IMG/VR virus record: IMGVR_UViG_2739368068_000001
Location: 19,116 to 83,115 of that record
Reading direction: 5' to 3' (one strand)
Origin: a virus
Lineage: Duplodnaviria > Caudoviricetes
Length of the DNA stretch: 64,000 bases
A model generated the notes under the pieces. It did no database searches. It saw only the letters and a list, made by a program, of their open reading frames with translations, and was not told where the DNA came from. The position numbers and the translations under genes are program-made. Of this stretch, positions 34,683 through 48,465 are shown piece after piece; the stretch's first letter is position 1, and every line of letters begins with the position of its first letter.

Positions 34683-35588
34683 TCAGGAACCGAGCGGGCC
34701 CCGGATCAGTACGGCGCGGTTCGCGTCGAGCGTCTTGCAGCCGTACAGCACGTCGATCGACACGACATCCTGCTTCTTGTCCATGTCGTACCCGTAGATC
34801 ACCCGCAGGCCGTACCCCTTGTAGGACGCGATCGCGGCGTTCGACGCGCCACGCGGCAGCGCCAGGGGCCGCACCGCGAGCGCGAACGCGGTCCGGTGGA
34901 ACGCCACCCCGACCTCGGTGGTCGGAATCCCCGTGCCCGGCGTCGGGATCGTGATGTTATTCGTCTCGTACGGGTCGAACCCGTACAGGCGACGGCCGAG
35001 CGACGCCTCTTGCAACCCCTGGGTGTCGCCCCGGGCGTCGGCCCGGCTGAGCAGGTCATTCTTGAGCCACTCCGCGGCCATCGTGGGGCCGACGACGGCG
35101 TACCGCTGCGACGGCGGAACGGACTGCTTCGTCAGTTCCCGGCCGGCGGCGACCATCGCCCGGGGGTCGTTCCACAACTCGCCGGAGGTGGTGCCGACGG
35201 TCGTCACGATGTCGGACCGCAGCGCCAGCAGGTCGCGATCGATCTTCTGCGAGATCGCTTCCATCGCCGGCGCGAGAAGCCGCTCAGAAAAGTCGGTGAT
35301 CTTGAGCGTGAGATCTTCCGACGTCACCGCGAAAGAAACGTCGGCGAAGTGGTTGAGCGTCATCGGGATACCGGACTCGGTCGCGTCCTGGACCGTGATT
35401 CCGGCCGCCCGGTTGTACTCGTGCGCGACGAACCTCGCCGGCTTCCGGATCGTGATCGTGTCACCGACCGCGCCCGCAAAGGTGTCTTCGTAGTCGCGGT
35501 GCACGAGCGACGCCATGATGGTCGTCTCGTACAGGTTCGCCAGCGCAGCCTGAGCGATGACGTCAGGCGTGAGCAGGGTGTTTGCCAT
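34683..35588 (-). CDS. Major capsid protein (P22 coat-like)
   Basis: MANTLLTPDVIAQAAL..GDTITIRKP..IDVLYGCKTLD. Confidence 0.9.
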   Translation of the reverse strand: MANTLLTPDVIAQAALANLYETTIMASLVHRDYEDTFAGAVGDTITIRKPARFVAHEYNRAAGITVQDATESGIPMTLNHFADVSFAVTSEDLTLKITDFSERLLAPAMEAISQKIDRDLLALRSDIVTTVGTTSGELWNDPRAMVAAGRELTKQSVPPSQRYAVVGPTMAAEWLKNDLLSRADARGDTQGLQEASLGRRLYGFDPYETNNITIPTPGTGIPTTEVGVAFHRTAFALAVRPLALPRGASNAAIASYKGYGLRVIYGYDMDKKQDVVSIDVLYGCKTLDANRAVLIRGPLGS

Positions 35589-35608: not shown

Positions 35609-36544
35609 TCAGCCCGGGCTGTCACTGCGTCGCTTGCGAAACTCAGCCCGGAAATCGTCGACGGTTGACGGTTCGGTGCTTTCCGCGCTGCTCCCGGCTG
35701 CGAAGTCGCCACCACTCGGGACCGGCGGCAGCACCGGGGGCGCCTGGCCCGCCGGCTGTTCCGCCTTGAAGTACGAATCGGTCTCGACAGCCGTCCCGAT
35801 GGCTGCCGCGACCTTGGCCGCGAAATCCGGCGCGCTCGGGTCGAGCGAGTCGATTCCGCGCATGAATTGACGGCTGTCCGTCAGCCGTTTCGGATTCGCG
35901 CCGTGCTCCGACGCGTTCTGCCAAATCGCCAACTCCCGGGCCATCGCGACCCGGTCGGCGGTCTGGCTCGTGAGTTGATCCGTCAGGATCCGAATCTGTT
36001 CCTCCGGCGCCGGGCCGCTCTCGCCGTCGGTGTCGTCCGGCACGTCCGGCATGAGCCCGGTCGCCTTGAGCAGCGACGCGACCCACTCCTGTCGCTGCTC
36101 CTCGAACCGCTGCGCGGCCCGCTCCTCGGCCGTCTTGGCCTCGACGCGACGGTCTCCGTTCTCGGTCCGCAACTGCTTGATGTAGTCGCGGATCTCGGCC
36201 GGGAACTCGTCGAGCGACCGCTCTGCCGGTGGCTTCGTGCCCCCGGCCGGCTGCGCGCCCGGTGGCGGCGTCACCGGTGCCTGGTTCGGTGCTGGCTCCT
36301 GAAAGAACGGCTGGAACACGCCGTCACCGGTGCCGGCCGGCGCGGATCCGGCCGCCCCGCCATCACCGCCGCCGCCGGTGCCGCTGGTGCCGCCGTCGCC
36401 GCCGGTGCCGCCGCCCGCGTCGCCGGCGGCCGGAGCCGGGGCGGCCGGGGCGGCCGGGGCGGAGTCGAGCGGCGGCGTCGCGAGCGGACACAGGTACGAG
36501 GCGACCGTGAGCCGGAGCAGCCGGGGACGCGTCAAGGTCTTCAT
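35609..36544 (-). CDS. Capsid scaffolding protein
   Basis: Low-complexity N-terminus, IKQLRTENGDRR coiled coil, ANPKRLTDSRQF; directly before the capsid gene. Confidence 0.8.
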   Translation of the reverse strand: MKTLTRPRLLRLTVASYLCPLATPPLDSAPAAPAAPAPAAGDAGGGTGGDGGTSGTGGGGDGGAAGSAPAGTGDGVFQPFFQEPAPNQAPVTPPPGAQPAGGTKPPAERSLDEFPAEIRDYIKQLRTENGDRRVEAKTAEERAAQRFEEQRQEWVASLLKATGLMPDVPDDTDGESGPAPEEQIRILTDQLTSQTADRVAMARELAIWQNASEHGANPKRLTDSRQFMRGIDSLDPSAPDFAAKVAAAIGTAVETDSYFKAEQPAGQAPPVLPPVPSGGDFAAGSSAESTEPSTVDDFRAEFRKRRSDSPG

Positions 36545-36739
36545 GTGGAGTGCCCTCCCGGGGCGGATGGGCCGCGGCTCCCGGCCGGCGGCGTGCGGAT
36601 ACGACACAGCCCCGACCGGCCCGAATCGGGCCCGTCAGGGCTGTGTGTGCTCTTCCAGGGGTCGCAGGCCGGTGACCTGCGGATATAAGTGACCTACCGG
36701 CCCGGAACCGGCCGTGACCGGCCGGGCCGCTCTACCCGG

Positions 36740-36970
36740 CTACTCGTCGACGTCGACCAGCTCGTCGAAATCGGTCTCCGGTGGCCGCCAATGGTGGTAG
36801 CCGCGTACCCACGCCGACGCGCGTAACCGCTCGGCCGGGTCACTGCTGGCCGGGTCGTACGGGCACGCCGTCAGCGGCAGTTGCCGGCGGGCGGCGTACC
36901 CGCCGGCGAGCCGGGCCGCTTCGGCCGTCAACGCGGCCGGCCTGGCCGGACCGGTCGGACCGATCGTCAT
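36740..36970 (-). CDS. Small Rmf/CrpP-fold-like protein
   Basis: AGGYAARRQLPLTACPY...RASAWVRGY resembles the RMF G..A...CPY...W..G pattern; 4-nt overlap with the upstream gene. Confidence 0.6.
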   Translation of the reverse strand: MTIGPTGPARPAALTAEAARLAGGYAARRQLPLTACPYDPASSDPAERLRASAWVRGYHHWRPPETDFDELVDVDE

Positions 36971-39378
36971 ACGAAGTCCCTTCCGGCCCCGGCGGCCAAC
37001 CGTTCGTTACGAGCCCGACGGGCGCCGCCGGTGAGCTGCGCCTTGAACTCGGTGTAGGTCATGCGCGGGTGAGTCTCCCACCAGCGCAACAACTCCTCCG
37101 ACGCGTACCGGCGTACCCGGTTGATCCCGCCGGAGAACAGGGCCCGGGGGTCGAACGCCTGAGCCCGGCCAGCAGGGGAGAGCAGGTGCCCCCGCGTCGC
37201 TGTCTCCGCCTCCAGGTATTGCAGGCTGACCCACTCGTCGTACTGGCGCCGGATCGCCGCGTCGGACAGCCGCCGGCCGCCGCTGCCGGCGGCGGCCTGC
37301 TCACGCTGCAACGTCTCGATGTCGAGATCATGCACCTCGGCGTACGCGTCCAGGTAGTCGCGGCCCTGGGCGAGCAGTTCGTTTAGCCGCTTGTCCTGCT
37401 CGGGAGTCGACTCCCGCCACTGCGTCGCGTGTTTCTTCTGGCGCGACGTCGTCCGGTCCGGCGGCCCGTACCGTTTATGGTCGTCCGGGTCGACGCCGTC
37501 CTCTTTCGCGAGCTGCCGAAACTCGGCGATCAGCGCGGGCGTCTTCAACGCGTCGGGGCGCTTGTCACCCCGGGACGCCGCGCCGGCCTCTCGCTGCAAG
37601 GTGGAATCCTCAATCTCGTCGGTGTAGGAGACGCCGTAGGCTCGCAGCATCGCCCGATAGACCCGGCGGGCGCTGGCCCGGTCCCCGTTCTCTGCGTCCT
37701 TTCGCGCCTGTTCCAGGATGATCGCCCACGCCTGGGCAGGCTTAGCGACGTCCGCAGGCGGTAGGGGACGCCGCATCGGCCCGACCGACGGGTCATCCTC
37801 CGGCCCTCGTGCAATCGTTGACGGTGTCGGACCAAGGTCGGCGAATTCGCCAAGGTGGCGATACCACGCCAGATAAAGGGCGACCCGCTCAACCAGCGCC
37901 CGGGGATCGGCTTTCTCCGCTGCCCGAATCGCCTTCTCGTCGGCGTCGGCTGGTAACCCGAGGACCCGGCGCCGGGACTCGTCGAGCCGGCCGCGCATCT
38001 CTCCGTCTCGGGCCCCCGTCGGCCGGGCGGTGTAGAGCAGCAGCGTGTCAAACCACTCCATCGGGTTCCGCACCCGGACGGGCCCGCCCGGACCGGCGTT
38101 GCGGCGTGCCTCTCGGTCCGCTGCTATCGCGTTGCGGCGGTCCAGTTCGCCGCGCAACTGCGCCAGCCGCGTCGTCCGGTATTCCTCCTCATCCGGCGCA
38201 AGGTCGCGCTCCTCGACGGTCCGGATCGCGGCCGGGAGTTCGTCGTCGGCCAGGTCCCGCGCGGGTATGAACAGGGCCCGTCGGAGCCGCGCCTGTTCCG
38301 TTGCCCGGGCTTCCTCGGCCTCTCGGGCGGCCCGCCGGCGCTCAATCTCGTAGTTGACGTCTTTGGCCTCCTGGTCGCGCTCCCGCTGCGCCTGCGCGTA
38401 TCCCTCCGGCCCCAACTCCCGGTAAAGCTGGCTCGGAAGGCTGCGATGCACGTACAAATTCGCGAATCGTGAATTCAGCTCGCGGTCGGTCAAATCCCGG
38501 AACCGGCGTTCACTCTGGGCGTCGCGGGCTTCCTTCTCACGACGGGCGTGCTCCGCGTACGCCTCCTCCTCCTCCTCCGCCGCCGCCCGCGCCGCCGCCT
38601 CGGCCGCCGCCCGCGCCCGGGCCTCTTCGGCCTCGGCGACCGCCCGCGCCTGCCGCTCGGCCTCCTCCCTCTCGGCCCGCTCGGCGGCCTCCCGGTCGCG
38701 GCGTTCCCACTCGACGTAGATCCGTTCCATCGCGGCCTCGTCGCCGAGCGTGGACGCCGCGTCAAGTCGCCGCTCCATGTCGGCGTCGTCGGTGGTCTCG
38801 TCGAACGGCCGATCGATGATCGCCCGTAGCCGCGCGTTCTGCGCGGCCCGTTCGGCGTCGCGGCGCCCCAGCTCGCCATCGAGTCGCATCAAGGCCGGCT
38901 CGTCGAGGTTGTTCATCCGCGACACGTCGGAGAACAGGGCCAACAGGTCGTCATCGCTGACCCCGGTCAGGTCGGCCGGGATCCGGGCGAGCACCGCGGC
39001 ATCGTCGCGGCGACCCAGCTCGTCGGCGAGCCGGGCTAACGTCCGCTCGTCGACGGGGCCCGGCCGGTTCGTGACCTCCGATATCAGGGCTTGCACCCGC
39101 TCGTCGGACAGGCCGGTCAAGTCGTCAGGTACCCGGGGCGACTCGACCTGCGAGGCGACCACCCGCACCGGGTGTTCCCGGCGTTGCGCCGGCGTCGACG
39201 CCTCGGGGCGTACGTCGCGGCCGTCACGGCGCGCGGTCGATACCTGTACCTCCGCCATCCGGCTGACCCGGGAGCGCCGGTTGTGCCGGGCCGCGATTCC
39301 GTGCATCGCCCCCCGACACGCACAGGTACAGATCTCGTCGGTGGCTTCTGCGCATATCTTGCTGTGTTCCTCGGCCAC
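36967..39378 (-). CDS. Shared-leader head-module protein C (803 aa, helical repeats)
   Basis: Leader HSKICAEATDEICTCACRGAMHGI; DLxxLSD..ELxRRD repeats; C-terminal ASEELLRWW domain. Confidence 0.75.
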   Translation of the reverse strand: MAEEHSKICAEATDEICTCACRGAMHGIAARHNRRSRVSRMAEVQVSTARRDGRDVRPEASTPAQRREHPVRVVASQVESPRVPDDLTGLSDERVQALISEVTNRPGPVDERTLARLADELGRRDDAAVLARIPADLTGVSDDDLLALFSDVSRMNNLDEPALMRLDGELGRRDAERAAQNARLRAIIDRPFDETTDDADMERRLDAASTLGDEAAMERIYVEWERRDREAAERAEREEAERQARAVAEAEEARARAAAEAAARAAAEEEEEAYAEHARREKEARDAQSERRFRDLTDRELNSRFANLYVHRSLPSQLYRELGPEGYAQAQRERDQEAKDVNYEIERRRAAREAEEARATEQARLRRALFIPARDLADDELPAAIRTVEERDLAPDEEEYRTTRLAQLRGELDRRNAIAADREARRNAGPGGPVRVRNPMEWFDTLLLYTARPTGARDGEMRGRLDESRRRVLGLPADADEKAIRAAEKADPRALVERVALYLAWYRHLGEFADLGPTPSTIARGPEDDPSVGPMRRPLPPADVAKPAQAWAIILEQARKDAENGDRASARRVYRAMLRAYGVSYTDEIEDSTLQREAGAASRGDKRPDALKTPALIAEFRQLAKEDGVDPDDHKRYGPPDRTTSRQKKHATQWRESTPEQDKRLNELLAQGRDYLDAYAEVHDLDIETLQREQAAAGSGGRRLSDAAIRRQYDEWVSLQYLEAETATRGHLLSPAGRAQAFDPRALFSGGINRVRRYASEELLRWWETHPRMTYTEFKAQLTGGARRARNERLAAGAGRDFV

Positions 39379-39384
39379 CGCCCG

Positions 39385-40755
39385 TTACCCCCCCGTTGTG
39401 CGATGCCGACGCCCGACGGGCGTCGGCATGATCGCGGCCTTACCTGTCAGGTCCGCGAGGACCGTCATCTGCGAGCCTCCAAGCCCGTCCGGGTATTCCG
39501 AGAGCTGGACTGATATCCGCCGGTCGAGGACCCGGCCACGGCGGCGGAGACTGACTTTCGATACGCCCTGGACGTAGCCGGTACCGCGCGTCGGTACCCC
39601 GTGCTGGTTGATGCCGCTGACGCGTACGTACATGCCCGGCGTCAGGTTGGTGACAGCTACCCGCTCCGGCTTCGGTAGACCCCCCGGCGGGGGTTTCCAG
39701 ACCGTCACCGTCCGGTACCCGTAGGCCACTCCGGACACTGACGGCACGTTGGTGTCGACGCGGATCCAGCCGCCGGCGGCGAGTTGCTCGGGAGACACGG
39801 TGGACGACACACGGCCGATCAGGCGGCCCTGGTTGTCCGTGACTCGGCCGTCGGCGTCGACGTCGCCCCACCGGAACCCGAACGCGTCGTGCGTTATGTT
39901 TTCCCGGGCCTCCCGGGGTATCCCGCTCCCCTCCAGCCGCTTCGGGATCATGATCGATCCATTGGCGATGGCGCGGGCGACATCGGGATGCGTGTCGGGC
40001 ACCGCCGCCCGCTCGGTCGCCTGCCGTGCGTCGTCCCGCTGCCCGATGTCGTCGAGCAGGGCCCGCCGCCGCGTCTCGCTCCGGAGAGCACGTAGCCGGC
40101 GAGCGATGTCCGGCACCGTGTCACGGCTCTCCAGCCCCGTCAGCCCCAGCGCGCCGACCTCCGCCGACGTGATGTCTCCCAGTTCTGGGTAGCGCGTCCG
40201 CAGCAGCGCCGCGAGGGAGTGATTCCCGGTCAGGTTGTCGTACTGCGCCTGCGTCTCGTCGACGAGCTGGCGGGCCCATCCGGCGCGGCTGTCGCCATCG
40301 GCCTGCCGGAGTGCCCGCATCAGCTCCACCGCGCCGTTACGGGCCCCGTTCCGGTCGCCCTGCTCCAGCGCGGCGGCCCAACGCCGGGCAGCGGCCTTCG
40401 TACCGGTCGGGAACCGCTCTGCGATCATGGCCCGCAACCGGGCTGCGCCTTCCGCCGGCAGCCGTGGCGCCGGGTCGTCGACAACGGCCGGCGTCTCCGC
40501 CGGCTGCTGCCCTCCGGTGCTGGCCTTCCGCTGCTCGGTCTTCGTGCCGCCGCCCGGCGGCCGGCCGGTGCTGGCCCGCTCGACCCGGTGGTACCGCTTC
40601 CCGTCGCGGTTGACGGCCGTGACCCTGACGTCGTCCATGTTTCGGATCCGGCCGCCCTTGGTTCGGATCCCGTGCATCGTGCCGCCACAGTCGCAGTAGC
40701 AGTCGCCACCGTCTGCCTCTGCGCACTCGCGGCTGTGCGCTCCCTTGTCGGCCAC
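39385..40755 (-). CDS. Shared-leader head-module protein B (456 aa)
   Basis: Leader HSRECAEADGGDCYCDCGGTMHGI; GAGGAGG RBS. Confidence 0.75.
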   Translation of the reverse strand: MADKGAHSRECAEADGGDCYCDCGGTMHGIRTKGGRIRNMDDVRVTAVNRDGKRYHRVERASTGRPPGGGTKTEQRKASTGGQQPAETPAVVDDPAPRLPAEGAARLRAMIAERFPTGTKAAARRWAAALEQGDRNGARNGAVELMRALRQADGDSRAGWARQLVDETQAQYDNLTGNHSLAALLRTRYPELGDITSAEVGALGLTGLESRDTVPDIARRLRALRSETRRRALLDDIGQRDDARQATERAAVPDTHPDVARAIANGSIMIPKRLEGSGIPREARENITHDAFGFRWGDVDADGRVTDNQGRLIGRVSSTVSPEQLAAGGWIRVDTNVPSVSGVAYGYRTVTVWKPPPGGLPKPERVAVTNLTPGMYVRVSGINQHGVPTRGTGYVQGVSKVSLRRRGRVLDRRISVQLSEYPDGLGGSQMTVLADLTGKAAIMPTPVGRRHRTTGG

Positions 40756-40842
40756 CGCCGGCCTCCTCGTGCTGTTGTCGGCGCACGCGGAACAGCCGCC
40801 CCGCGCGGTGCGGGACGGCTGTTCGTGTGGTGGTACGGGCGC

Positions 40843-41124
40843 CTAGTGGACGACGGCCGCCCCGGCGGCGACCGGTGGTACCGGGACCGGCGGCGGGGTG
40901 CCGGTCACGGTCAGCGGGCCGGGGATCAGGTGCCGGCCGGCGAGGTACAGCCACGTCTGGTCGTTGCTGCCCGTCGCGTCGTACTGCGGGCCGAGCGGTG
41001 TCATCGGTGCGGGGACCTGGTCGACGAGCCAGCCGGTAACCTCGGCGCCGGTCGTGGTGTCGGCATCCCACCGGCCGCCCCGGAAATCGAGCCAACGACC
41101 GTCGCTGCCCTCAATTCGCCACAT
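40843..41124 (-). CDS. Small protein, putative immunity partner of protein A
   Basis: 93 aa; ATG lies 14 nt inside the end of the upstream HExxH gene. Confidence 0.6.
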   Translation of the reverse strand: MWRIEGSDGRWLDFRGGRWDADTTTGAEVTGWLVDQVPAPMTPLGPQYDATGSNDQTWLYLAGRHLIPGPLTVTGTPPPVPVPPVAAGAAVVH

Positions 41125-42751
41125 GAGACGAATTGTATCCGAGTGTGAGTAGAGCGCCGATAACAAACTGCTGCAAATCATCGGATCGGTCGAAATCGCG
41201 ACGACGTGACCAGAGATCTTGCATGCCTACCTGGAATAGCTCCCACGGCACGTCGGCCGGATGGTCGGGTTTCCACCGTTCGTACGTCTTACCTGCGTAC
41301 GCGTTTGCCCATGTGTCCCTGAACCCGACTTCACGGTCTCCACTGTAAATCGGCGTCTGTCGTTCCAGTGTGACGCCGTCAGGGGCGGTCGACCTGCGAC
41401 GAACCATTGTGAATTCAAGGTGCGTCAGACCAGGAATCGTCGCTTCCATCCGGTGCCCGAGTTCGTGCACGGTCACATCCCGCGCGTACCCGTCCGCGCC
41501 GGCGCCGTGCGCGCCGGCGTACCAACCGCCGACCCCCTGCGCCGGTACCCCCATCGTGTCGATCCCGGCGGAGTAGAACGCCCGTTCGGAGGCCACCAAC
41601 CGCAACGGCCGCCGCGCGGCGGCCTGTAGCCACTCCGACGGGTAGAACTGTTCGGCGTCGGCCAGCGTGACCAGCGCGGTGACACGTGCCCCGGTAGTCG
41701 GGACTCCGTCGACGTCCGTGATCCGCGACGCCTCTTCGTCCGTGGCCAGGGTTGCGCGGTGCCCCGGCCCGCCGAACGTCCGCGCAGACCCGAGCAACGC
41801 GGCCAAAATCTCCTGTTCCCGGCGTAGCGGAGCGAGTTTCGCTGCCTTCCACCGCTGGTGAGCGGCCGTCACATCAGGATGATCGGCCGGCAGCGTCTCC
41901 GACAGCCGCGACCAGGTGGCCCACGACTCCTCGTCGGCACGGCGGAGTCGCTGCCACTCAGGGTCGTTGTGCCATACCTTCCGCGCTTCGTCGAGGACCA
42001 GGCGGCCGACGTCGAGGACCGCATCGAGGTGCCGCTCATACTCTTCTGGCGGCAGCCGCACCGACAGTCCCGACGCGTCGTCACGACCGGTCCGGTAGTG
42101 GTAGCTGGTCCGGTCGGCGGCCCGTTCCTCCTCCGTCCGCAGATAGTTACGGTTGTTCCTCAACGCCTCTTCGAGCGCTTCTATCCGCTGCTCGTACGGG
42201 CCGACCGACTGGGCAAACCAGCGTTCCCGGTCGGCCTTGCGAAGCCGCTGCCCCCGCCACTCGGCCTTGAACGCGGCGGCGGCCTGATCCCGGCGGGCCC
42301 GCTCGGCCGCGATCGCCGTCTCCAGCTCGGCGATCGCGGCGCGCAGCTCGGCGGCCCGCGCGACCGCCCGCCGGTCGACCCGCAGCGGCGCATCCCATTC
42401 GCCGCTAGTCTTCGGCAGGCCGGCCCGGACGCGGGCGATCGTTTCCCGCACCCCGTCCGGCAGCGTCGGCGCTTCCGGCGTCGTCGACCGGCTGACGGTC
42501 ACCGAGGGTGCCCGGCGAAGCGCCTGCCGCCGCTCGGTCAGGGTGCCGCCGCCGGGCGGTAGCCCGTCGTCCCGGCGGACTCGCCACCGCCGGCGGGTAC
42601 CGGTTCCGATCGCGATGATCTGTACGTCCGCCATGCGGCGGAGCCGGCCGGACAGGTGTCGAATGCCGTGCATGGTGCCCTTGCACTGGCAGTGACACAC
42701 CCCGCCATCGGCGTTGGCGCACTCCTCGCTGTGCGGTCCGGCATCGGCCAC
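41111..42751 (-). CDS. Shared-leader head-module protein A with C-terminal HExxH metallopeptidase
   Basis: Leader HSEECANADGGVCHCQCKGTMHGI; VTVHELGHRME...YAGKTY...WELFQVGM. Confidence 0.78.
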   Translation of the reverse strand: MADAGPHSEECANADGGVCHCQCKGTMHGIRHLSGRLRRMADVQIIAIGTGTRRRWRVRRDDGLPPGGGTLTERRQALRRAPSVTVSRSTTPEAPTLPDGVRETIARVRAGLPKTSGEWDAPLRVDRRAVARAAELRAAIAELETAIAAERARRDQAAAAFKAEWRGQRLRKADRERWFAQSVGPYEQRIEALEEALRNNRNYLRTEEERAADRTSYHYRTGRDDASGLSVRLPPEEYERHLDAVLDVGRLVLDEARKVWHNDPEWQRLRRADEESWATWSRLSETLPADHPDVTAAHQRWKAAKLAPLRREQEILAALLGSARTFGGPGHRATLATDEEASRITDVDGVPTTGARVTALVTLADAEQFYPSEWLQAAARRPLRLVASERAFYSAGIDTMGVPAQGVGGWYAGAHGAGADGYARDVTVHELGHRMEATIPGLTHLEFTMVRRRSTAPDGVTLERQTPIYSGDREVGFRDTWANAYAGKTYERWKPDHPADVPWELFQVGMQDLWSRRRDFDRSDDLQQFVIGALLTLGYNSSHVAN

Positions 42752-42766
42752 GTCCACCGCCCCCTG

Positions 42767-43924
42767 TCATGATCGGCTCGCCGGGACGGCGGCCGGTGGA
42801 ATGTGTCCGGCGCCGATCTCCTCTCGGTACCGGAGCCGGGTCAACTGGTGCTCGTCGACGTGCCGCACGATCGCGGCCGTCCACTCGGCGACCCGGGCCG
42901 CCGCCGCCCGCCGGCCCTGCTCGGTCAGCGCCGAGACTTCGCGCTCCCGCCAGTGCCGTATGTGGCGCTCGATCTCTCGCTGCCGGGTCCGGGCCGCCTC
43001 GCCGGCCGGGTCCGCGGTCCGGCCGGTCCGGAGCAGGATCGACACCCCGGGCAGGTAGCGGCGGATCGTGTGCCGGCATCGCGGGTGCAGCAGCCCAGCG
43101 GCGGTCGCCTCGTCGAGCGTGGCCACGACGTTGACGGGCACCAGGGCGCCGGTACGGGCGTGCGGTGCCATCTGCTGGCCGGTGGGGCCCCACAGCGCGA
43201 GAATCCGATGCTCGTAGGGGCGGCAGCGCCAGCATTCGCCGGGCTGGTCGTCGACGGACACGAGCCGGATCCCGGCGGCGGTGATCTCGTCGGCCTGGCC
43301 AAGCACGGTCGCGCGGTGTACGGCGGTCTGCGCGGCCATCTCGACGTACGTGTGGAGGCGCCAGCGGCGGCCGGCGGTGTCGGTGTAGCCGGTGACGCCC
43401 CGGTCGACCAGCTCGGCCCATGCGGCCTGGGCGGCCTCGCGTTGGGTGGTGGCGCCGGTCAGCCTGCGGGCCGCCGCGTTGGTGATCGCCCGCCGGTACG
43501 CGGTGTCGACCTGCGGCAGGATCGCCGCGTGCAGCGGCCGGAGTTCGCTGACCATGGCGTCGGCAAGGGCTTGGATTGCTTGCGCGGCGCGGCGTTCGGC
43601 CTGCCCGGCGGGGCGGGGCGCGGTGCGGTCGGTGAGGTGCTCGGCGAGGTCCGCGACGGCGTCAGCGCGGCCGGCGCGGTAGCCGGCGGCGATCGCTGCC
43701 CGGGCCCGGGCGGCGCCGGCGGCGGCGAGCTGCGCGGCGATCGCCGTGGTGGCGCGGTGTAGCGCGCCGATGCTTTCCAGTCGGCGGGCCTGCCAGTCGG
43801 TGCGGTCGAGTCCGACAGCGAGTCGGGCCCGGATCGTTTGCAGGAGCGCCGTTTCACCTTCGCGGTAGACGTGGGCGACGGCGGCGGCGAGCTGGTCGAC
43901 GCGGCGTGGGTCGACCGCCACCAC
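42767..43924 (-). CDS. Phage minor capsid protein (MuF-related, minor capsid 2 family)
   Basis: RRWRLHTYVEMAAQT, ECWRCRPYE, GLLHPRCRH, REIERHIRHWR. Confidence 0.85.
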   Translation of the reverse strand: MVAVDPRRVDQLAAAVAHVYREGETALLQTIRARLAVGLDRTDWQARRLESIGALHRATTAIAAQLAAAGAARARAAIAAGYRAGRADAVADLAEHLTDRTAPRPAGQAERRAAQAIQALADAMVSELRPLHAAILPQVDTAYRRAITNAAARRLTGATTQREAAQAAWAELVDRGVTGYTDTAGRRWRLHTYVEMAAQTAVHRATVLGQADEITAAGIRLVSVDDQPGECWRCRPYEHRILALWGPTGQQMAPHARTGALVPVNVVATLDEATAAGLLHPRCRHTIRRYLPGVSILLRTGRTADPAGEAARTRQREIERHIRHWREREVSALTEQGRRAAAARVAEWTAAIVRHVDEHQLTRLRYREEIGAGHIPPAAVPASRS

Positions 43925-43933
43925 AACCCCCTA

Positions 43934-43981
43934 AACTTTGGTAAACATGATGTTGACTAAAGATGTTTGGGCGGCTAGTTT
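43934..43981 (+). promoter_or_regulatory. Operator-promoter (rightward) inside the late module
   Basis: AACTTTGGTAAACA-TGA-TGTTGACTAAAGAT; TTGACT-17-TAGTTT. Confidence 0.88.
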
Positions 43982-44030
43982 GATCTCTGGTCGGGTTGCT
44001 GGATCCGACCCCCGAACCGGAGGAACCCCG

Positions 44031-45056
44031 ATGCCGCACACCGCCCCGGCCGCACCCGCCGCCCGCGCCACCTGGAAGAACCACGGCCGCCCGGCCGCCG
44101 GCTTCTACTTCGGCAACGGCGCTGCCCCGGTCGGCTCAGGCCGGCTGGTGACGGTGCGGGCGGTCGGCTCCGTCGAGATCTTCGACGCGACCACCGGCGA
44201 GCGGATCGCCGAGCACAGCACCCGGGCGATGTGGTGGTACGCCCCGGCCGCCGAGATCACCGGCGGGGACCTGGACCGCGCCCGGGTCGGCGCCGCGCAC
44301 ACCGAAGCGCGGCACATCGCCGAGTATCGGCGGATCACCAGCGACCGCACCGACCCGACCGACTCCCTGCTGTACCTCTCCCTCGTCGCCGACCAGCACC
44401 AGGCCGCGCAGCGTGGACACGGCGCGCTGGCGCTCGCGCTCGCCGAGCGAGTCGCCGCGCTCCGGCCGGCGCACGAGGCCGACGAGGCCGAGCGGGCCCG
44501 GGCGCTGGCCGAGCAGCGGGCCCGGGTCATCGCCACGCGGGCCGCTGAGGCCGGGCCGGACGAGGTTGTGATCGTGCCGTGCGGCGGGAAGAAGCTCGAC
44601 GAGGCGGCGCCGGCCGGGGAGATCTACACCGGCAGCTACCACGCCGCGTGCCGGCGGGCCGCCGCCGCCCGGGGCGGCCGGCTGTTCATCCTCTCCGCCC
44701 TCCACGGGCTGCTCGACCCCGCCACGGTGATCGAGCCGTACGACCTGCGGATGGGTCAGCCCGGAAGCGTCACCCCGCGCCAGGTGCGCGACCAGGCCGG
44801 CGCGCTCGGCATCCTCGGCGCCCGGGTGACCGTGCTAGCCGGACGCGCGTACGCGGACGTCGTCCGGGCGGTCTGGCCGGACGCCGCTCGGCCGCTGCAC
44901 GGGTCGCGCGGCATGTTCGAGCAGATGCGGATGCTCGCCGAGATCGCCGCCATGCCCCGGCCGCAGCCGCGCCGCCGGCCGGCACCGGCACCACGGCGGC
45001 GGCCCCGCCGGCCGGTACCGGTCATCGCCGGACAGCTCGCCCTGTTCGCCGCCTGA
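44031..45056 (+). CDS. Protein with C-terminal DUF6884/YaaA-like domain
   Basis: IVPCGGKK...AGEIYTG...FILSALHGLL...IEPYDLRM; GGAGG RBS. Confidence 0.7.
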   Translation: MPHTAPAAPAARATWKNHGRPAAGFYFGNGAAPVGSGRLVTVRAVGSVEIFDATTGERIAEHSTRAMWWYAPAAEITGGDLDRARVGAAHTEARHIAEYRRITSDRTDPTDSLLYLSLVADQHQAAQRGHGALALALAERVAALRPAHEADEAERARALAEQRARVIATRAAEAGPDEVVIVPCGGKKLDEAAPAGEIYTGSYHAACRRAAAARGGRLFILSALHGLLDPATVIEPYDLRMGQPGSVTPRQVRDQAGALGILGARVTVLAGRAYADVVRAVWPDAARPLHGSRGMFEQMRMLAEIAAMPRPQPRRRPAPAPRRRPRRPVPVIAGQLALFAA

Positions 45057-45150: not shown

Positions 45151-45807
45151 ATGACAACACCCGAACCCCGGCCGGTGAACCTCGACACGCGTCAACGTCG
45201 CATCCTCGCCGAAATCGCCGCAGCCGGCCGGCACGGCGTCTACCGACGGCAGTGGCACGGCGGCACGATCGGCGCGCTGCTCCGCCTGCACGTCATCGAA
45301 GAGGTACCCGGGGCACCCGACTACGTACGACTACGGGCCGGCGTCGCCATCCCGGCCGACCCGACGGGAAGTGAGACCCGCCAGCCAACCGGGCCGATCA
45401 CCCCCGAGGACGTGCACAACATGTGGGAGCGCCTCGGCCTACGGCCGGTGTCGCTACGCGAGGCGCAGCGGATCGCCGACCGGATCAACACCGAAGCGGC
45501 GGCCCGCCCGTACGTGTCGGCGACCACCGCCGCCCGGACGGCCGCGCACGCGTACTGTGCCGCCGCCGTCATCGACGGCCGCCCCGTCGTCGACTACCGC
45601 CGCGACCGGGACTGCGACCGGCCGCACGATCCGACGACAGCCGCCGGGTACGTGGTCCGGGAGACCACCGACGGGCAGGCCACCGCGTACGACCTCGCCG
45701 TGATCAGCGCTTCTGCCGATGCGGCGGCGATCGTCCGGCGGCTGGCCAGTGAGGGGCGTACCGTCCACGTCGACACCCTGTACCGGTGCGGCTGCCGCGC
45801 CGTGTGA
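45151..45807 (+). CDS. Hypothetical early protein
   Basis: 218 aa, AGGAG RBS. Confidence 0.65.
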   Translation: MTTPEPRPVNLDTRQRRILAEIAAAGRHGVYRRQWHGGTIGALLRLHVIEEVPGAPDYVRLRAGVAIPADPTGSETRQPTGPITPEDVHNMWERLGLRPVSLREAQRIADRINTEAAARPYVSATTAARTAAHAYCAAAVIDGRPVVDYRRDRDCDRPHDPTTAAGYVVRETTDGQATAYDLAVISASADAAAIVRRLASEGRTVHVDTLYRCGCRAV

Positions 45808-45931: not shown

Positions 45932-47557
45932 TCACCCCGTGCGTTGCTCCCCGTCGTCTTCCGGCTCGGGAGCGTCGACAGGTTCGGTCGGCTGGCTGGC
46001 CGCCGCCGTCCCCGGCTCGGCGACCGGGGCGGCCCCGGCTTCCTCTTTGATCTTGATGACTTCGGCTTTCACCTGCTTGTCGTCCCAATCCGGGTTAAGC
46101 CTCCGTACCCGGGTTTCGATGCTGGCCGACTCCGCCGCCTTGATCATTTGCAGGCTGCGGGCGACGTCCTCGGTGTTGTCCGGTAGCCCGTCCGGCCAGT
46201 CGAGCACCGGCCGGATCGCCGTGACCCCGTCCGGCCGGAACTTCGCCGCGTCGATCTGCAACGCCGCGTACGCCAGCCGGGCCAGCGGCCCCGTGTAGTA
46301 GTTGATCTTCTTTCGGCGGGTCGACACCGAACGGCCAATCTGCGCGTTGACCTCGGTCGCCGTCGCGGCCACCTGGTCATCCTCGCCGAACGTCCGACCC
46401 GAGTAGCCGGCCGTCCTGACCGTCGTCAGCAGCAGCTCGCGACACGTCCGCGAGTGCTCCTCCACCCGGATCGCGAACTGCACGACGGTCAACTTCATGG
46501 CGCCTTCGCCGCTGTCGAGCGCCTCGACCTGCTCGTACACCTCGCGTTCCGGATCGAACACGCCGCCCTGGCCACGCCCCCGGGATTGGATGTAGGACCG
46601 GGGCACCACCAGGCGGCCCTTACCGATCCGCAGGTCGCGCATCCATGACGTCCACGCCTCGTCGAACGCGTCCATCATCGGCTCAGCGCCGGCGTAGTCG
46701 GACCGTCCCAGCGGCGACCCGCGCAACGTCCGGTGCGGGCGCATGTTCGGCACGTACTCGATGCTCAGCCCGTCGGCCCCGGTGTCGACCGTCTCCCGGT
46801 CGCCGGGGTCGACCAGCAACGCGAATGGTGCGGTCGCCGGGTGGTCCTCCAGCCGCATCCGCTGGCCGAGCTTGTTCTCATCGCTCGACCGGTAGACGCC
46901 GTGCAGGATCCGCCCACGCTCGTGCCGCTCCAGGTGCCGCCAGTGCCGCCCGTCGATCCGGTCCAGGTCCCGCCACAGGGTGACGGCTACCAGCCGGCCA
47001 GAACGGAACTCAGGGGCGGCGCAGTCAGGCGGCACCACGTCGAACAGCGGCACCTCGGCGACCGTCGGATCCCACATGACCCGGTGGTAGACGCCGCCGT
47101 ACGCGGCGGCGATCTCCGCCCCTTCCATCCAGGTCGCCTGTGCGTTGCTCTCGATAAGGATCTCATCGAGCCGCGCCTGTGTCTTAGGGCCACCAGCAGC
47201 GCCGGCGTCCTTGGGGATCCCGAACGTCGGCGGCTCCCCGAACAGCAGATCCGATGACGTGGTGGCGATGTCGCCGGCAAGCGGGATGTGCAGCTTGTGG
47301 CCGCGAGTCTGCCCGGTCGACGGGGGAGCGCCCCAGAACATGCGTTGGATGCCACGCGCGATCGCGGAACTAAACCGAGCGCCGCCGGCCGGGTTCCCGG
47401 CCGGGACGTCAGCACCGGCGATCGCCGGCATGTCCTCGTACACCTTCGCGAGTTCCTCCGGCTCGCCGGAGTACCAGGCACCCCACCGTCGGTAGAGCTG
47501 CCGCGCCTTGCGCGTCGACGGCGGCGGCCACTCCTCATTAGCGTTAGGCAGCGGCAC
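45932..47557 (-). CDS. Portal protein
   Basis: 541 aa; WYSGEPEEL, KLHIPLAGDIATTSSDLLFGEPP, LGRSDY, ASIETRVRRLNPDW. Confidence 0.9.
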   Translation of the reverse strand: MPLPNANEEWPPPSTRKARQLYRRWGAWYSGEPEELAKVYEDMPAIAGADVPAGNPAGGARFSSAIARGIQRMFWGAPPSTGQTRGHKLHIPLAGDIATTSSDLLFGEPPTFGIPKDAGAAGGPKTQARLDEILIESNAQATWMEGAEIAAAYGGVYHRVMWDPTVAEVPLFDVVPPDCAAPEFRSGRLVAVTLWRDLDRIDGRHWRHLERHERGRILHGVYRSSDENKLGQRMRLEDHPATAPFALLVDPGDRETVDTGADGLSIEYVPNMRPHRTLRGSPLGRSDYAGAEPMMDAFDEAWTSWMRDLRIGKGRLVVPRSYIQSRGRGQGGVFDPEREVYEQVEALDSGEGAMKLTVVQFAIRVEEHSRTCRELLLTTVRTAGYSGRTFGEDDQVAATATEVNAQIGRSVSTRRKKINYYTGPLARLAYAALQIDAAKFRPDGVTAIRPVLDWPDGLPDNTEDVARSLQMIKAAESASIETRVRRLNPDWDDKQVKAEVIKIKEEAGAAPVAEPGTAAASQPTEPVDAPEPEDDGEQRTG

Positions 47558-47584
47558 CGGTGGCCCCTCTCGTCGTGGTCACCG

Positions 47585-47863
47585 TCATCCGCGCCGTTCG
47601 CCGGGCGCCTGCCCGGGCCGGGCCCCGGTCGCGAGCCGGTGCAGGTTCGCGCACCAGCCGTCGAGCATCCGCGCGGGCACCTTGCCCCGGTAGAACTTCC
47701 GGCACCGGTCGAAATCTCCGGACTGTCCCCAATGGAAGATCTTCCCGCCTTCGGCAGGGTTGATCGCCCACGCGCGGAGCCGAGCCAACCCGGCCGCTTC
47801 CTTCGGTGTCTTCGCGGCCACGACGGGCCTCCCTTCGCTGGTCGTACGCTGGCCGGATGACAC
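47585..47863 (-). CDS. Small Cys/His protein seen as a domain of actinophage head proteins
   Basis: WGQSGDFDRC...GWCANLHRLATGARPG. Confidence 0.6.
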   Translation of the reverse strand: MSSGQRTTSEGRPVVAAKTPKEAAGLARLRAWAINPAEGGKIFHWGQSGDFDRCRKFYRGKVPARMLDGWCANLHRLATGARPGQAPGERRG

Positions 47864-48465
47864 GGCACGATGACGGCGCGATCGCCCTGGCCCTGCACCG
47901 CGAGCAGCTCCGCCGGATCATCCTGATCGGCTTCCAACGCGACGTTGACGAGTGGCGCCGCGAGCGGCGAGCGCTCGCCGATCCCCGGATCCGCGTCGAC
48001 GTCGTCACCGCGACCGACGGCCGCGACCTTGACCGGCTGCGCGGGATCGACGTCCGCGCGGCCGGCCTGGTCGTCCTCACCGGCCGCCCGGGCGGCAGCG
48101 TCGCCGACACCGTCGAAGCGCGGCACGCGGTCGCCTCGCTCCGCTCCGCCGGCGCTCGGATGCTGCCGCCGACGTGGCCGGAACCGACCCGGTACGTCGT
48201 CTACCGGGCCGCGTCCGGGGTGGCGGCGGTCGACCTGCCGCCCCTCCTGGTCGGCCAGTGGGCTGCACGTCCTGACGCCGGCGGGGAACCGGACGCCCCG
48301 CGCGAGGTCATCAGCCAGCCAACCGGCCGCCACGAGCGGCACCCGACCCGCGACGACTGGGCAGAGGTGTACGAGGTGCGTCCCCGGCCGGCGCCGACGT
48401 CACCGCGGCGACCTCCGGCGGGCGACACCGCCGGCGGCGGACACGAGGCGATGTCGGCGTGGTGA
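47857..48465 (+). CDS. Hypothetical protein
   Basis: 202-aa ORF from ATG 47857. Confidence 0.55.
   Translation: MTRHDDGAIALALHREQLRRIILIGFQRDVDEWRRERRALADPRIRVDVVTATDGRDLDRLRGIDVRAAGLVVLTGRPGGSVADTVEARHAVASLRSAGARMLPPTWPEPTRYVVYRAASGVAAVDLPPLLVGQWAARPDAGGEPDAPREVISQPTGRHERHPTRDDWAEVYEVRPRPAPTSPRRPPAGDTAGGGHEAMSAW

Follow-up and report, generated by a model that had tools for sequence, protein, structure and literature searches.

N-terminal targeting signals have been shown to bring proteins into the head of bacteriophage T4. The N-terminal 30 residues of DarB of phage P1 suffice to direct a reporter into capsids (PMC9024508). Effectors fused to the minor capsid protein MuF have been described and are proposed to leave the head together with the DNA (Iyer et al. 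2017, PMC5512222; also PMC5576092), and the toxins of this type include metallopeptidase and ADP-ribosyltransferase (ART) domains (Jamet et al. 2017, PMC5576092). The known phage-delivered effectors are either covalent fusions, as in MuF toxins and polyvalent proteins, or carry short targeting peptides, as in T4 and P1. Here we describe three genes, A, B and C, that share an N-terminal Cys/His leader and lie in the head module of an uncultured phage. The sequence analysed comprises bases 19116-83115 of an IMG/VR virus record of 83 kb, for which a completeness of 96% is given. This whole stretch of 64,000 nucleotides, with a G+C content of ~71%, is referred to as the window, and L- and P-numbers (L001, P0084 etc.) are our labels for retrieved loci and proteins.

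On the minus strand, the head module is ordered portal, MuF-like, A, A', B, C, a 76-aa gene, scaffold-like and P22-type coat. A first-pass annotation of the window had singled out A, B and C as three consecutive co-oriented genes between the minor capsid and scaffold genes that start with GTG-GCC-GA, encode 546, 456 and 803 aa and carry a leader with four Cys and two His on unrelated bodies, and had read them as a leader-addressed cargo system. Translation, alignment and BLASTP bore out this description, including the peptides that it quoted. We propose, with a probability of about 0.5, that this is a split MuF system, with A, B and C as proteins of the head interior and the leader in place of the covalent link to MuF.

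A Cys/His leader on unrelated proteins

The three proteins have a common N-terminal segment of ~75 residues, over which the leader of A is 59% identical to that of B and 45% identical to that of C. The many synonymous DNA differences among the leaders point to an old paralogy under selection and not to a recent conversion. For A, the start is the GTG at 42751, and an upstream GTG at 42757 is also open. A degenerate DNA pattern for H-x3-C-x2-A-x4-C-x-C-x-C-x-G-x2-H-G matched three sites in the window, those in A, B and C, versus none in 100 shuffles, and H7, C11, A14, C19, C21, C23, G25, H28 and G29 are invariant in 37 aligned leaders. Beyond the leader, the bodies of A, B and C showed no cross-match in BLASTP (1e-5). 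In the AlphaFold2 (AF2) model of A, the leader is a small independent domain with a predicted local distance difference test (pLDDT) score of about 80 over residues 11-80, and the fold is predicted to consist of a Cys4His2 knuckle, probably with one zinc site, followed by a beta-hairpin and a short helix. There are two leader subtypes, type I with GLPPGGGT..ER on A, B and most enzyme bodies, and type II on C-type proteins.

A leader profile was built from ten leaders and searched against 1.84 billion cluster representatives. The search returned 50 clusters, 19 of them below 1e-10, which makes the leader rare. Matches below about 1e-5 all start within the first few residues, and the leader match begins at residues 1-7 throughout the high-GC set. 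The leader region is not covered by any model of Pfam, PHROG or NCBIfam, in agreement with the first-pass annotation, which had not recognised it as a named family.

Across metagenomes, the leader heads at least eight unrelated body groups. These include A-type HELGH zincins, ATLF-like HEFGH zincins (PF07737), ARTs (PF03496 ADPrib_exo_Tox, E-value 2e-27), proteins with the C-terminal domain of C that is here called domain X, a group with an RYGWYEV.KVN element at the end, and several of unknown type. A 118-aa gene lies downstream of the ART-type relative. For the ATLF-like P0010, phmmer against PDB sequences gave weak ATLF-like/PPEP matches only. Two further proteins, P0038 and P0039, looked ART-like by eye; this assignment was dropped because no family or structure match was found, and phmmer against PDB returned nothing meaningful for P0039. 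In L011, the P0038 gene (leader plus unknown body; pair at 2-412 and 405-1229) comes directly after a DNA methyltransferase gene (phrog_498, E-value 5e-42), with whose end it overlaps, an arrangement that recalls packaged DarB-type methylases. The element (K)F V(R/K)T(R/Q)YGWYEV.KVN..SVKV.AAPGMDD forms the C-terminus of the otherwise different leader proteins P0013, P0022 and P0024, is internal in P0031 and represents an unnamed small domain.

The tandem, co-oriented genes and a B leader that is closest to A-type leaders (58-63%) are compatible with ordinary paralogy, in which one ancestral head gene was duplicated in tandem and the N-terminus merely evolved most slowly, with no addressing role. 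However, because the bodies come from distinct recognisable families (zincin, ATLF-like, ADPrib_exo_Tox and the all-alpha domain X), they cannot be diverged copies of one body, and the syntenic middle genes of the window and L003 are alike in leader and not in body. We consider this explanation very improbable.

Split and fused MuF loci

The MuF-like protein stands alone, as the first-pass annotation had noted, and its match to PF06152 Phage_min_cap2 (E-value 2e-54, 185 bits) spans the full profile (2-366/366) within 385 aa. Standalone MuF genes that are 60-71% identical to it have leader genes directly after them, and in six split loci the leader gene follows MuF immediately. A single leader gene, of C-type, comes after MuF in L020. 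L001 and L002 have two (A-type plus A', and C-type), and L003 and the window have three. L016 has a C-type gene after MuF and a second leader gene 12.7 kb away on the L014/L016 contig. The middle genes of the window and L003 have leaders that are 51% identical and unrelated bodies. A variable number of leader genes next to MuF with swapped C-termini had been predicted, and the relatives, with one to three genes and swapped bodies, show this variation.

MuF homologues that are 42-48% identical to that of the window include covalent fusions, namely MuF-X in P0084 and P0089-P0092 and MuF-ART in P0094. No leader motif was found in the 8-21 kb flanks of the fused MuF loci (L077-L079), nor in mycobacteriophage Anaya. 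Within the sample, the leader thus accompanies X or an effector that is encoded separately from MuF and is missing from the fused forms, and its N-terminal position is that of the former MuF/body junction.

In the split system that we propose, MuF would be encoded by itself, and every C-terminal body, whether a former part of the MuF protein or an addition, would have received its own ~75-residue leader. This leader would most likely dock its protein non-covalently on the MuF/portal complex or on another site in the procapsid interior, and the docked body would be built into the head and exit with the DNA. C and the Rmf-like gene downstream of it would be the conserved core, with the zincin protease A plus A' and the orphan B as accessory cassettes inserted between MuF and C. 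That a leader substitutes for a covalent link in loading proteins into the virus particle is a plausible reading and would be new.

Several observations count in favour of a split MuF. The leader bodies are of types known to be fused to MuF (zincin, ATLF-like, ART, domain X), fused and split forms occur within one MuF subfamily as in a Rosetta-stone pattern, and the copy number varies between one, two and three with a body swap in the middle gene. The lowered G+C content at third codon positions (GC3) in A, the predicted independent folding of the leader and the precedent of P1 DarB point in the same direction.

Other observations weigh against it. L021 has a standalone MuF with neither X nor a leader gene on the contig, L010 has two leader copies that flank the portal gene, 8 kb apart and not adjoining MuF, the distant copy on the L014/L016 contig does not adjoin MuF either, and L007 has a leader gene with no PF06152 gene nearby. 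In Microcystis phage Mwe-JY05, domain X is found on a protein without MuF and without leader. Searches by tblastn with A and with the leader alone against 50,697 GenBank phages gave no match, that is, no cultured phage with the leader. The bare Cys/His motif is not exclusive to head modules and occurs on non-head proteins as well. A DNA-pattern scan of 185,579 species genomes for the knuckle yielded 55 matches, only one of which was a C-type protein (L028). Most belong to a ~260-310-aa family, found in Actinomadura, Spirillospora, Streptosporangium, Nonomuraea, Microbacterium and Kocuria among others, in which an N-terminal knuckle is followed by a conserved body with HFWC and LAVLMCP..H.AV..C motifs (L023-L068; for example L054:3986-4828, L029:901-1830 and L026:6006-6878). 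This family has no Pfam, NCBIfam or PADLOC match, the neighbours of its genes look chromosomal and non-phage, and the GC3 of the genes is lower than that of their surroundings. Low-GC phages encode proteins of 41-164 aa with little beyond the knuckle (P0041-P0057), and in a few proteins the knuckle is internal (two copies in P0040, 868 aa) or lies at or near the C-terminus (L008:7731-8072 and L012:1908-2477).

Given the knuckle on non-head proteins, the knuckle itself cannot be purely a capsid address. The ~25-residue knuckle is thus a general module, and only the full ~75-residue leader is specific to head-module proteins. The occurrence of the knuckle outside head modules also keeps alive the alternative that it recognises a common ligand, be it nucleic acid or another. 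According to this explanation, a generic zinc knuckle with a basic tract would bind the phage genome or host DNA or RNA and be reused on many proteins, and the head proteins would ride on packaged DNA or act on nucleic acid after delivery. A knuckle at the head of chromosomal ~280-aa proteins and tiny phage proteins agrees with it, and so do the basic leaders (isoelectric point 9.0-9.9, with 13-16 Lys+Arg per 70-79 residues) and the MuF protein of SPP1, gp7, which has been reported to bind DNA plus the portal. It leaves unexplained, however, why the occurrence of the leader coincides exactly with the lack of a covalent link to MuF, and Pfam and structure searches showed no similarity of the leader to a known DNA-binding zinc finger. 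We judge binding to nucleic acid to be unlikely as the role of the leader. The leader could also be a portable zinc-dependent docking domain that plugs cargo onto MuF/portal, with new effectors recombining behind a resident leader and the ~280-aa Actinomadura-type chromosomal proteins being host or satellite proteins that use or sabotage the address; this wider scheme appears decidedly unlikely.

Core pair and accessory genes

The first-pass annotation had also taken C as variable effector cargo, which did not hold. The profiles phrog_12049 and phrog_1752 match residues 640-791 of C, and in tblastn searches its last ~140 residues (domain X) matched 339 phage records, most of them of mycobacteriophages, at the C-termini of 'MuF-like minor capsid' proteins. 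In the model of P0018, a short C-type relative, domain X is all-alpha with pLDDT >90; this model had no solved-structure match, none above Z 5. These alignments identify domain X as the C-terminal half that is conserved among MuF-type head proteins, such as Anaya gp11.

The small open reading frames (ORFs) described after A and C do overlap these genes, but the one after C is not an immunity gene. It shares an ATGA overlap with C and matches the Rmf/CrpP-fold phage protein model NF041887 (E-value 5e-12, 45.2 bits versus a curated cutoff of 40). An ORF of this kind follows domain X in L001-L003, L020, L077, L078, Anaya (gp12) and Mwe-JY05, in split and fused forms alike. Because it trails domain X even where X is fused, an immunity function is not indicated, and C and the Rmf-like gene are best regarded as a conserved core pair and not as a toxin-immunity pair. 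The cargo reading as a whole was partly supported: the leader family, its N-terminal position, the diversity of bodies and the split-versus-fused pattern stood, whereas C as cargo and immunity encoded after C fell away. In one relative only, an additional 193-aa gene of unknown family follows the Rmf-like gene (L002:15091-15672).

The HELGH motif of A is kept as HE[LM]GH in the five A-type relatives retrieved. The AF2 model of A (pLDDT 78, predicted template modelling score 0.71) comprises the leader (11-80), a long helical hairpin modelled with very high confidence (99-323) and the protease domain. The ESM Atlas model for residues 330-548 of A resembles Phage_Mu_F C-terminal domains (template modelling (TM) score 0.69) and the DdrB-ParB polyvalent type (0.64), with a range of 0.64-0.73 to MuF-/DdrB-linked C-terminal domains and 0.57 to Peptidase_Mx1. 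Having an HExxH helix (HELGH) and, by these structural matches, a zincin fold, the body of A is predicted to be a zincin-like metallopeptidase. Foldseek searches against PDB and BFVD and a VIA-wide search, using the full A model, returned coiled-coil or weak rows only, and phmmer with A, B and C against PDB sequences gave no match. Over the protease domain GC3 is 0.60-0.65 versus 0.8-0.9 elsewhere, suggesting an acquired cassette.

The conserved start of A' (ATG at 41124) overlaps the stop of A. A' follows every A-type gene in L001, L002 and L003 with a conserved sequence and gave no family match in Pfam, PHROG, NCBIfam and PADLOC searches. Two further ideas about A were rejected. A MuF-A fusion by stop-codon read-through is conceivable in the window and L002, in which the two genes share a frame with 15 nt between them, but L001 and L020 lack this arrangement, and an essential head-maturation protease is at odds with L020 and L016, which are without A.

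The body of B had no homologue in a search of 5.8 billion proteins, no Pfam, PHROG, NCBIfam or PADLOC match and no likeness to other leader bodies, and its ESM Atlas model was poor. B is without a small downstream gene of the kind of A' or the companion of C.

Several of the bodies are toxin-type enzymes, and the leader might instead be a pro-domain or metal-dependent regulatory cap that keeps toxic bodies (protease, ART) inactive in the producer until it is removed or unfolded. The conserved GLPPGGGT..ER at the leader end could be a processing site, and zincin proteases have been proposed to process polyvalent proteins (PMC5512222). The leader is, however, also found on domain X, a core head component that is not an enzyme-like toxin, L020 and L016 lack the A-type protease yet keep leader-X, and a long helical hairpin lies between leader and catalytic domain in the model of A. 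A capping role is quite improbable in our view.

Table 1. Features of the head module, with positions in the window
Feature	Position	Strand	Evidence
Portal protein (541 aa)	45932..47557	-	phrog_533 E 4e-98; PF05133 SPP1_portal
Standalone MuF-like minor capsid protein (385 aa), MuF N-terminal domain only	42767..43924	-	PF06152 Phage_min_cap2
Gene A (546 aa): leader, long helical hairpin, predicted zincin-like metallopeptidase	41111..42751	-	translation, model
Leader of A, type I (predicted Cys4His2 knuckle, beta-hairpin, GLPPGGGT, helix)	42523..42751	-	alignments; AF2 pLDDT
HELGH motif of A, residues 429-433	41453..41467	-	
Small gene A' (93 aa from conserved ATG), coupled to A	40843..41124	-	conserved in relatives; no family match
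Gene B (456 aa): type I leader, orphan body	39385..40755	-	
Gene C (803 aa): type II leader, long acidic/coiled linker, domain X	36967..39378	-	
Domain X of C, residues ~665-803, ending GRDFV	36970..37386	-	alignment
Rmf/CrpP-fold small protein (76 aa), companion of domain X	36740..36970	-	NF041887 E 5e-12
Scaffold-like protein (332 aa)	35609..36607	-	phrog_8952 E 1e-26; weak phrog_233 scaffolding match
Major capsid protein, P22-coat-like (301 aa)	34683..35588	-	PF11651 E 4e-37; phrog_283 E 2e-68

The remaining features of the module (Table 1) include a 301-aa coat protein that matches the first half alone of the P22 coat profile (1-217 of 423); coat proteins of 301 aa are also seen in L002 and L020. 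Between the genes for portal and MuF lie two antisense (+) genes at 43938-45056 and 45151-45807, the first of which has a DUF6884 domain (PF21818, E-value 1e-20) and matches the PADLOC candidate PDC-M57A (E-value 1e-13). This slot holds DUF6884 genes in two relatives, L002 and L020, and in L016 it holds a gene for a T4-type RNA ligase. It therefore looks like an insertion hot spot for morons. A 451-aa open frame over the portal start (46987-48342, minus strand; G+C at second codon positions 0.72, GC3 0.74) has no family match and is probably no gene, so the terminase must be elsewhere.

GC-rich hairpins without T-tracts at 40756-40842 and 36608-36739 on the minus strand, after A' and the Rmf-like gene, were missed by a consensus terminator scan and mark the ends of the A/A' and C/small-gene units. 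Consensus scanning gave no promoter-like site, and its sole terminator-like site falls within B on the other (+) strand. Among sequencing runs, the stretch was found in the probable source sample alone, and no RNA run containing it was listed. Pfam and PHROG profile searches of the head module detected no prohead protease family.

Relation to described systems

With MuF polymorphic toxins (PMC5576092), the locus has in common the portal-adjacent head position, the metallopeptidase/ART repertoire and a small gene after the protease. C-termini of toxin class are present in A (predicted zincin) and in its PF03496 ART and PF07737 ATLF-like relatives, with B unknown and C not of a toxin type. In MuF toxins, however, the toxin is the C-terminus of the MuF polypeptide, whereas here MuF is separate and the bodies are carried on the Cys4His2 leader; A, B and C have no PF06152/PF04233 match, and none of them combines MuF and a toxin in one polypeptide.

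In the MuF-domain X proteins (Anaya gp11/gp12; P0084, P0089-P0092), domain X and the downstream Rmf-like gene are homologous to those of the window and the portal-to-coat order is the same. The single gene of the Anaya type corresponds here to two, MuF (385 aa) and leader-linker-X (803 aa), which are separated by the inserted A, A' and B.

As in the T4 internal proteins and Alt and in P1 DarB, unrelated proteins carry a common N-terminal element that would, as the arrangement of genes suggests, serve the head interior, and ART is among the cargo of the leader relatives as it is in T4 Alt. The T4 and P1 signals are peptides of 10-30 residues without metal ligands, those of T4 being cut by the prohead protease (PMC9024508 for P1 DarB). 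The leader described here is, in contrast, a ~75-residue Cys/His domain that is predicted to fold, with no recognisable prohead protease in the module and no sequence similarity to those signals.

Polyvalent proteins (PMC5512222) follow the logic proposed here, with effectors delivered together with the invading DNA, and have the same zincin metallopeptidase class; A resembles the DdrB-ParB and MuF-linked metallopeptidases. They string many domains into one chain, unlike the leader proteins, which have one recognisable body each and are connected with one another by the shared leader alone.

If the proposed split of MuF is true, cargo would be loaded into capsids by a third route, a folded metal-binding leader in place of the covalent link, next to MuF or polyvalent fusions and short targeting peptides. 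This route would explain how effectors can be gained and exchanged in the head module while the essential structural gene stays intact. The work would also define an unnamed Cys4His2 domain family and the unnamed all-alpha domain X, which is widespread in MuF-type proteins of actinobacteriophages. Were the leader shown to be sufficient, heterologous proteins tagged with it could be loaded into phage particles in laboratory hosts.

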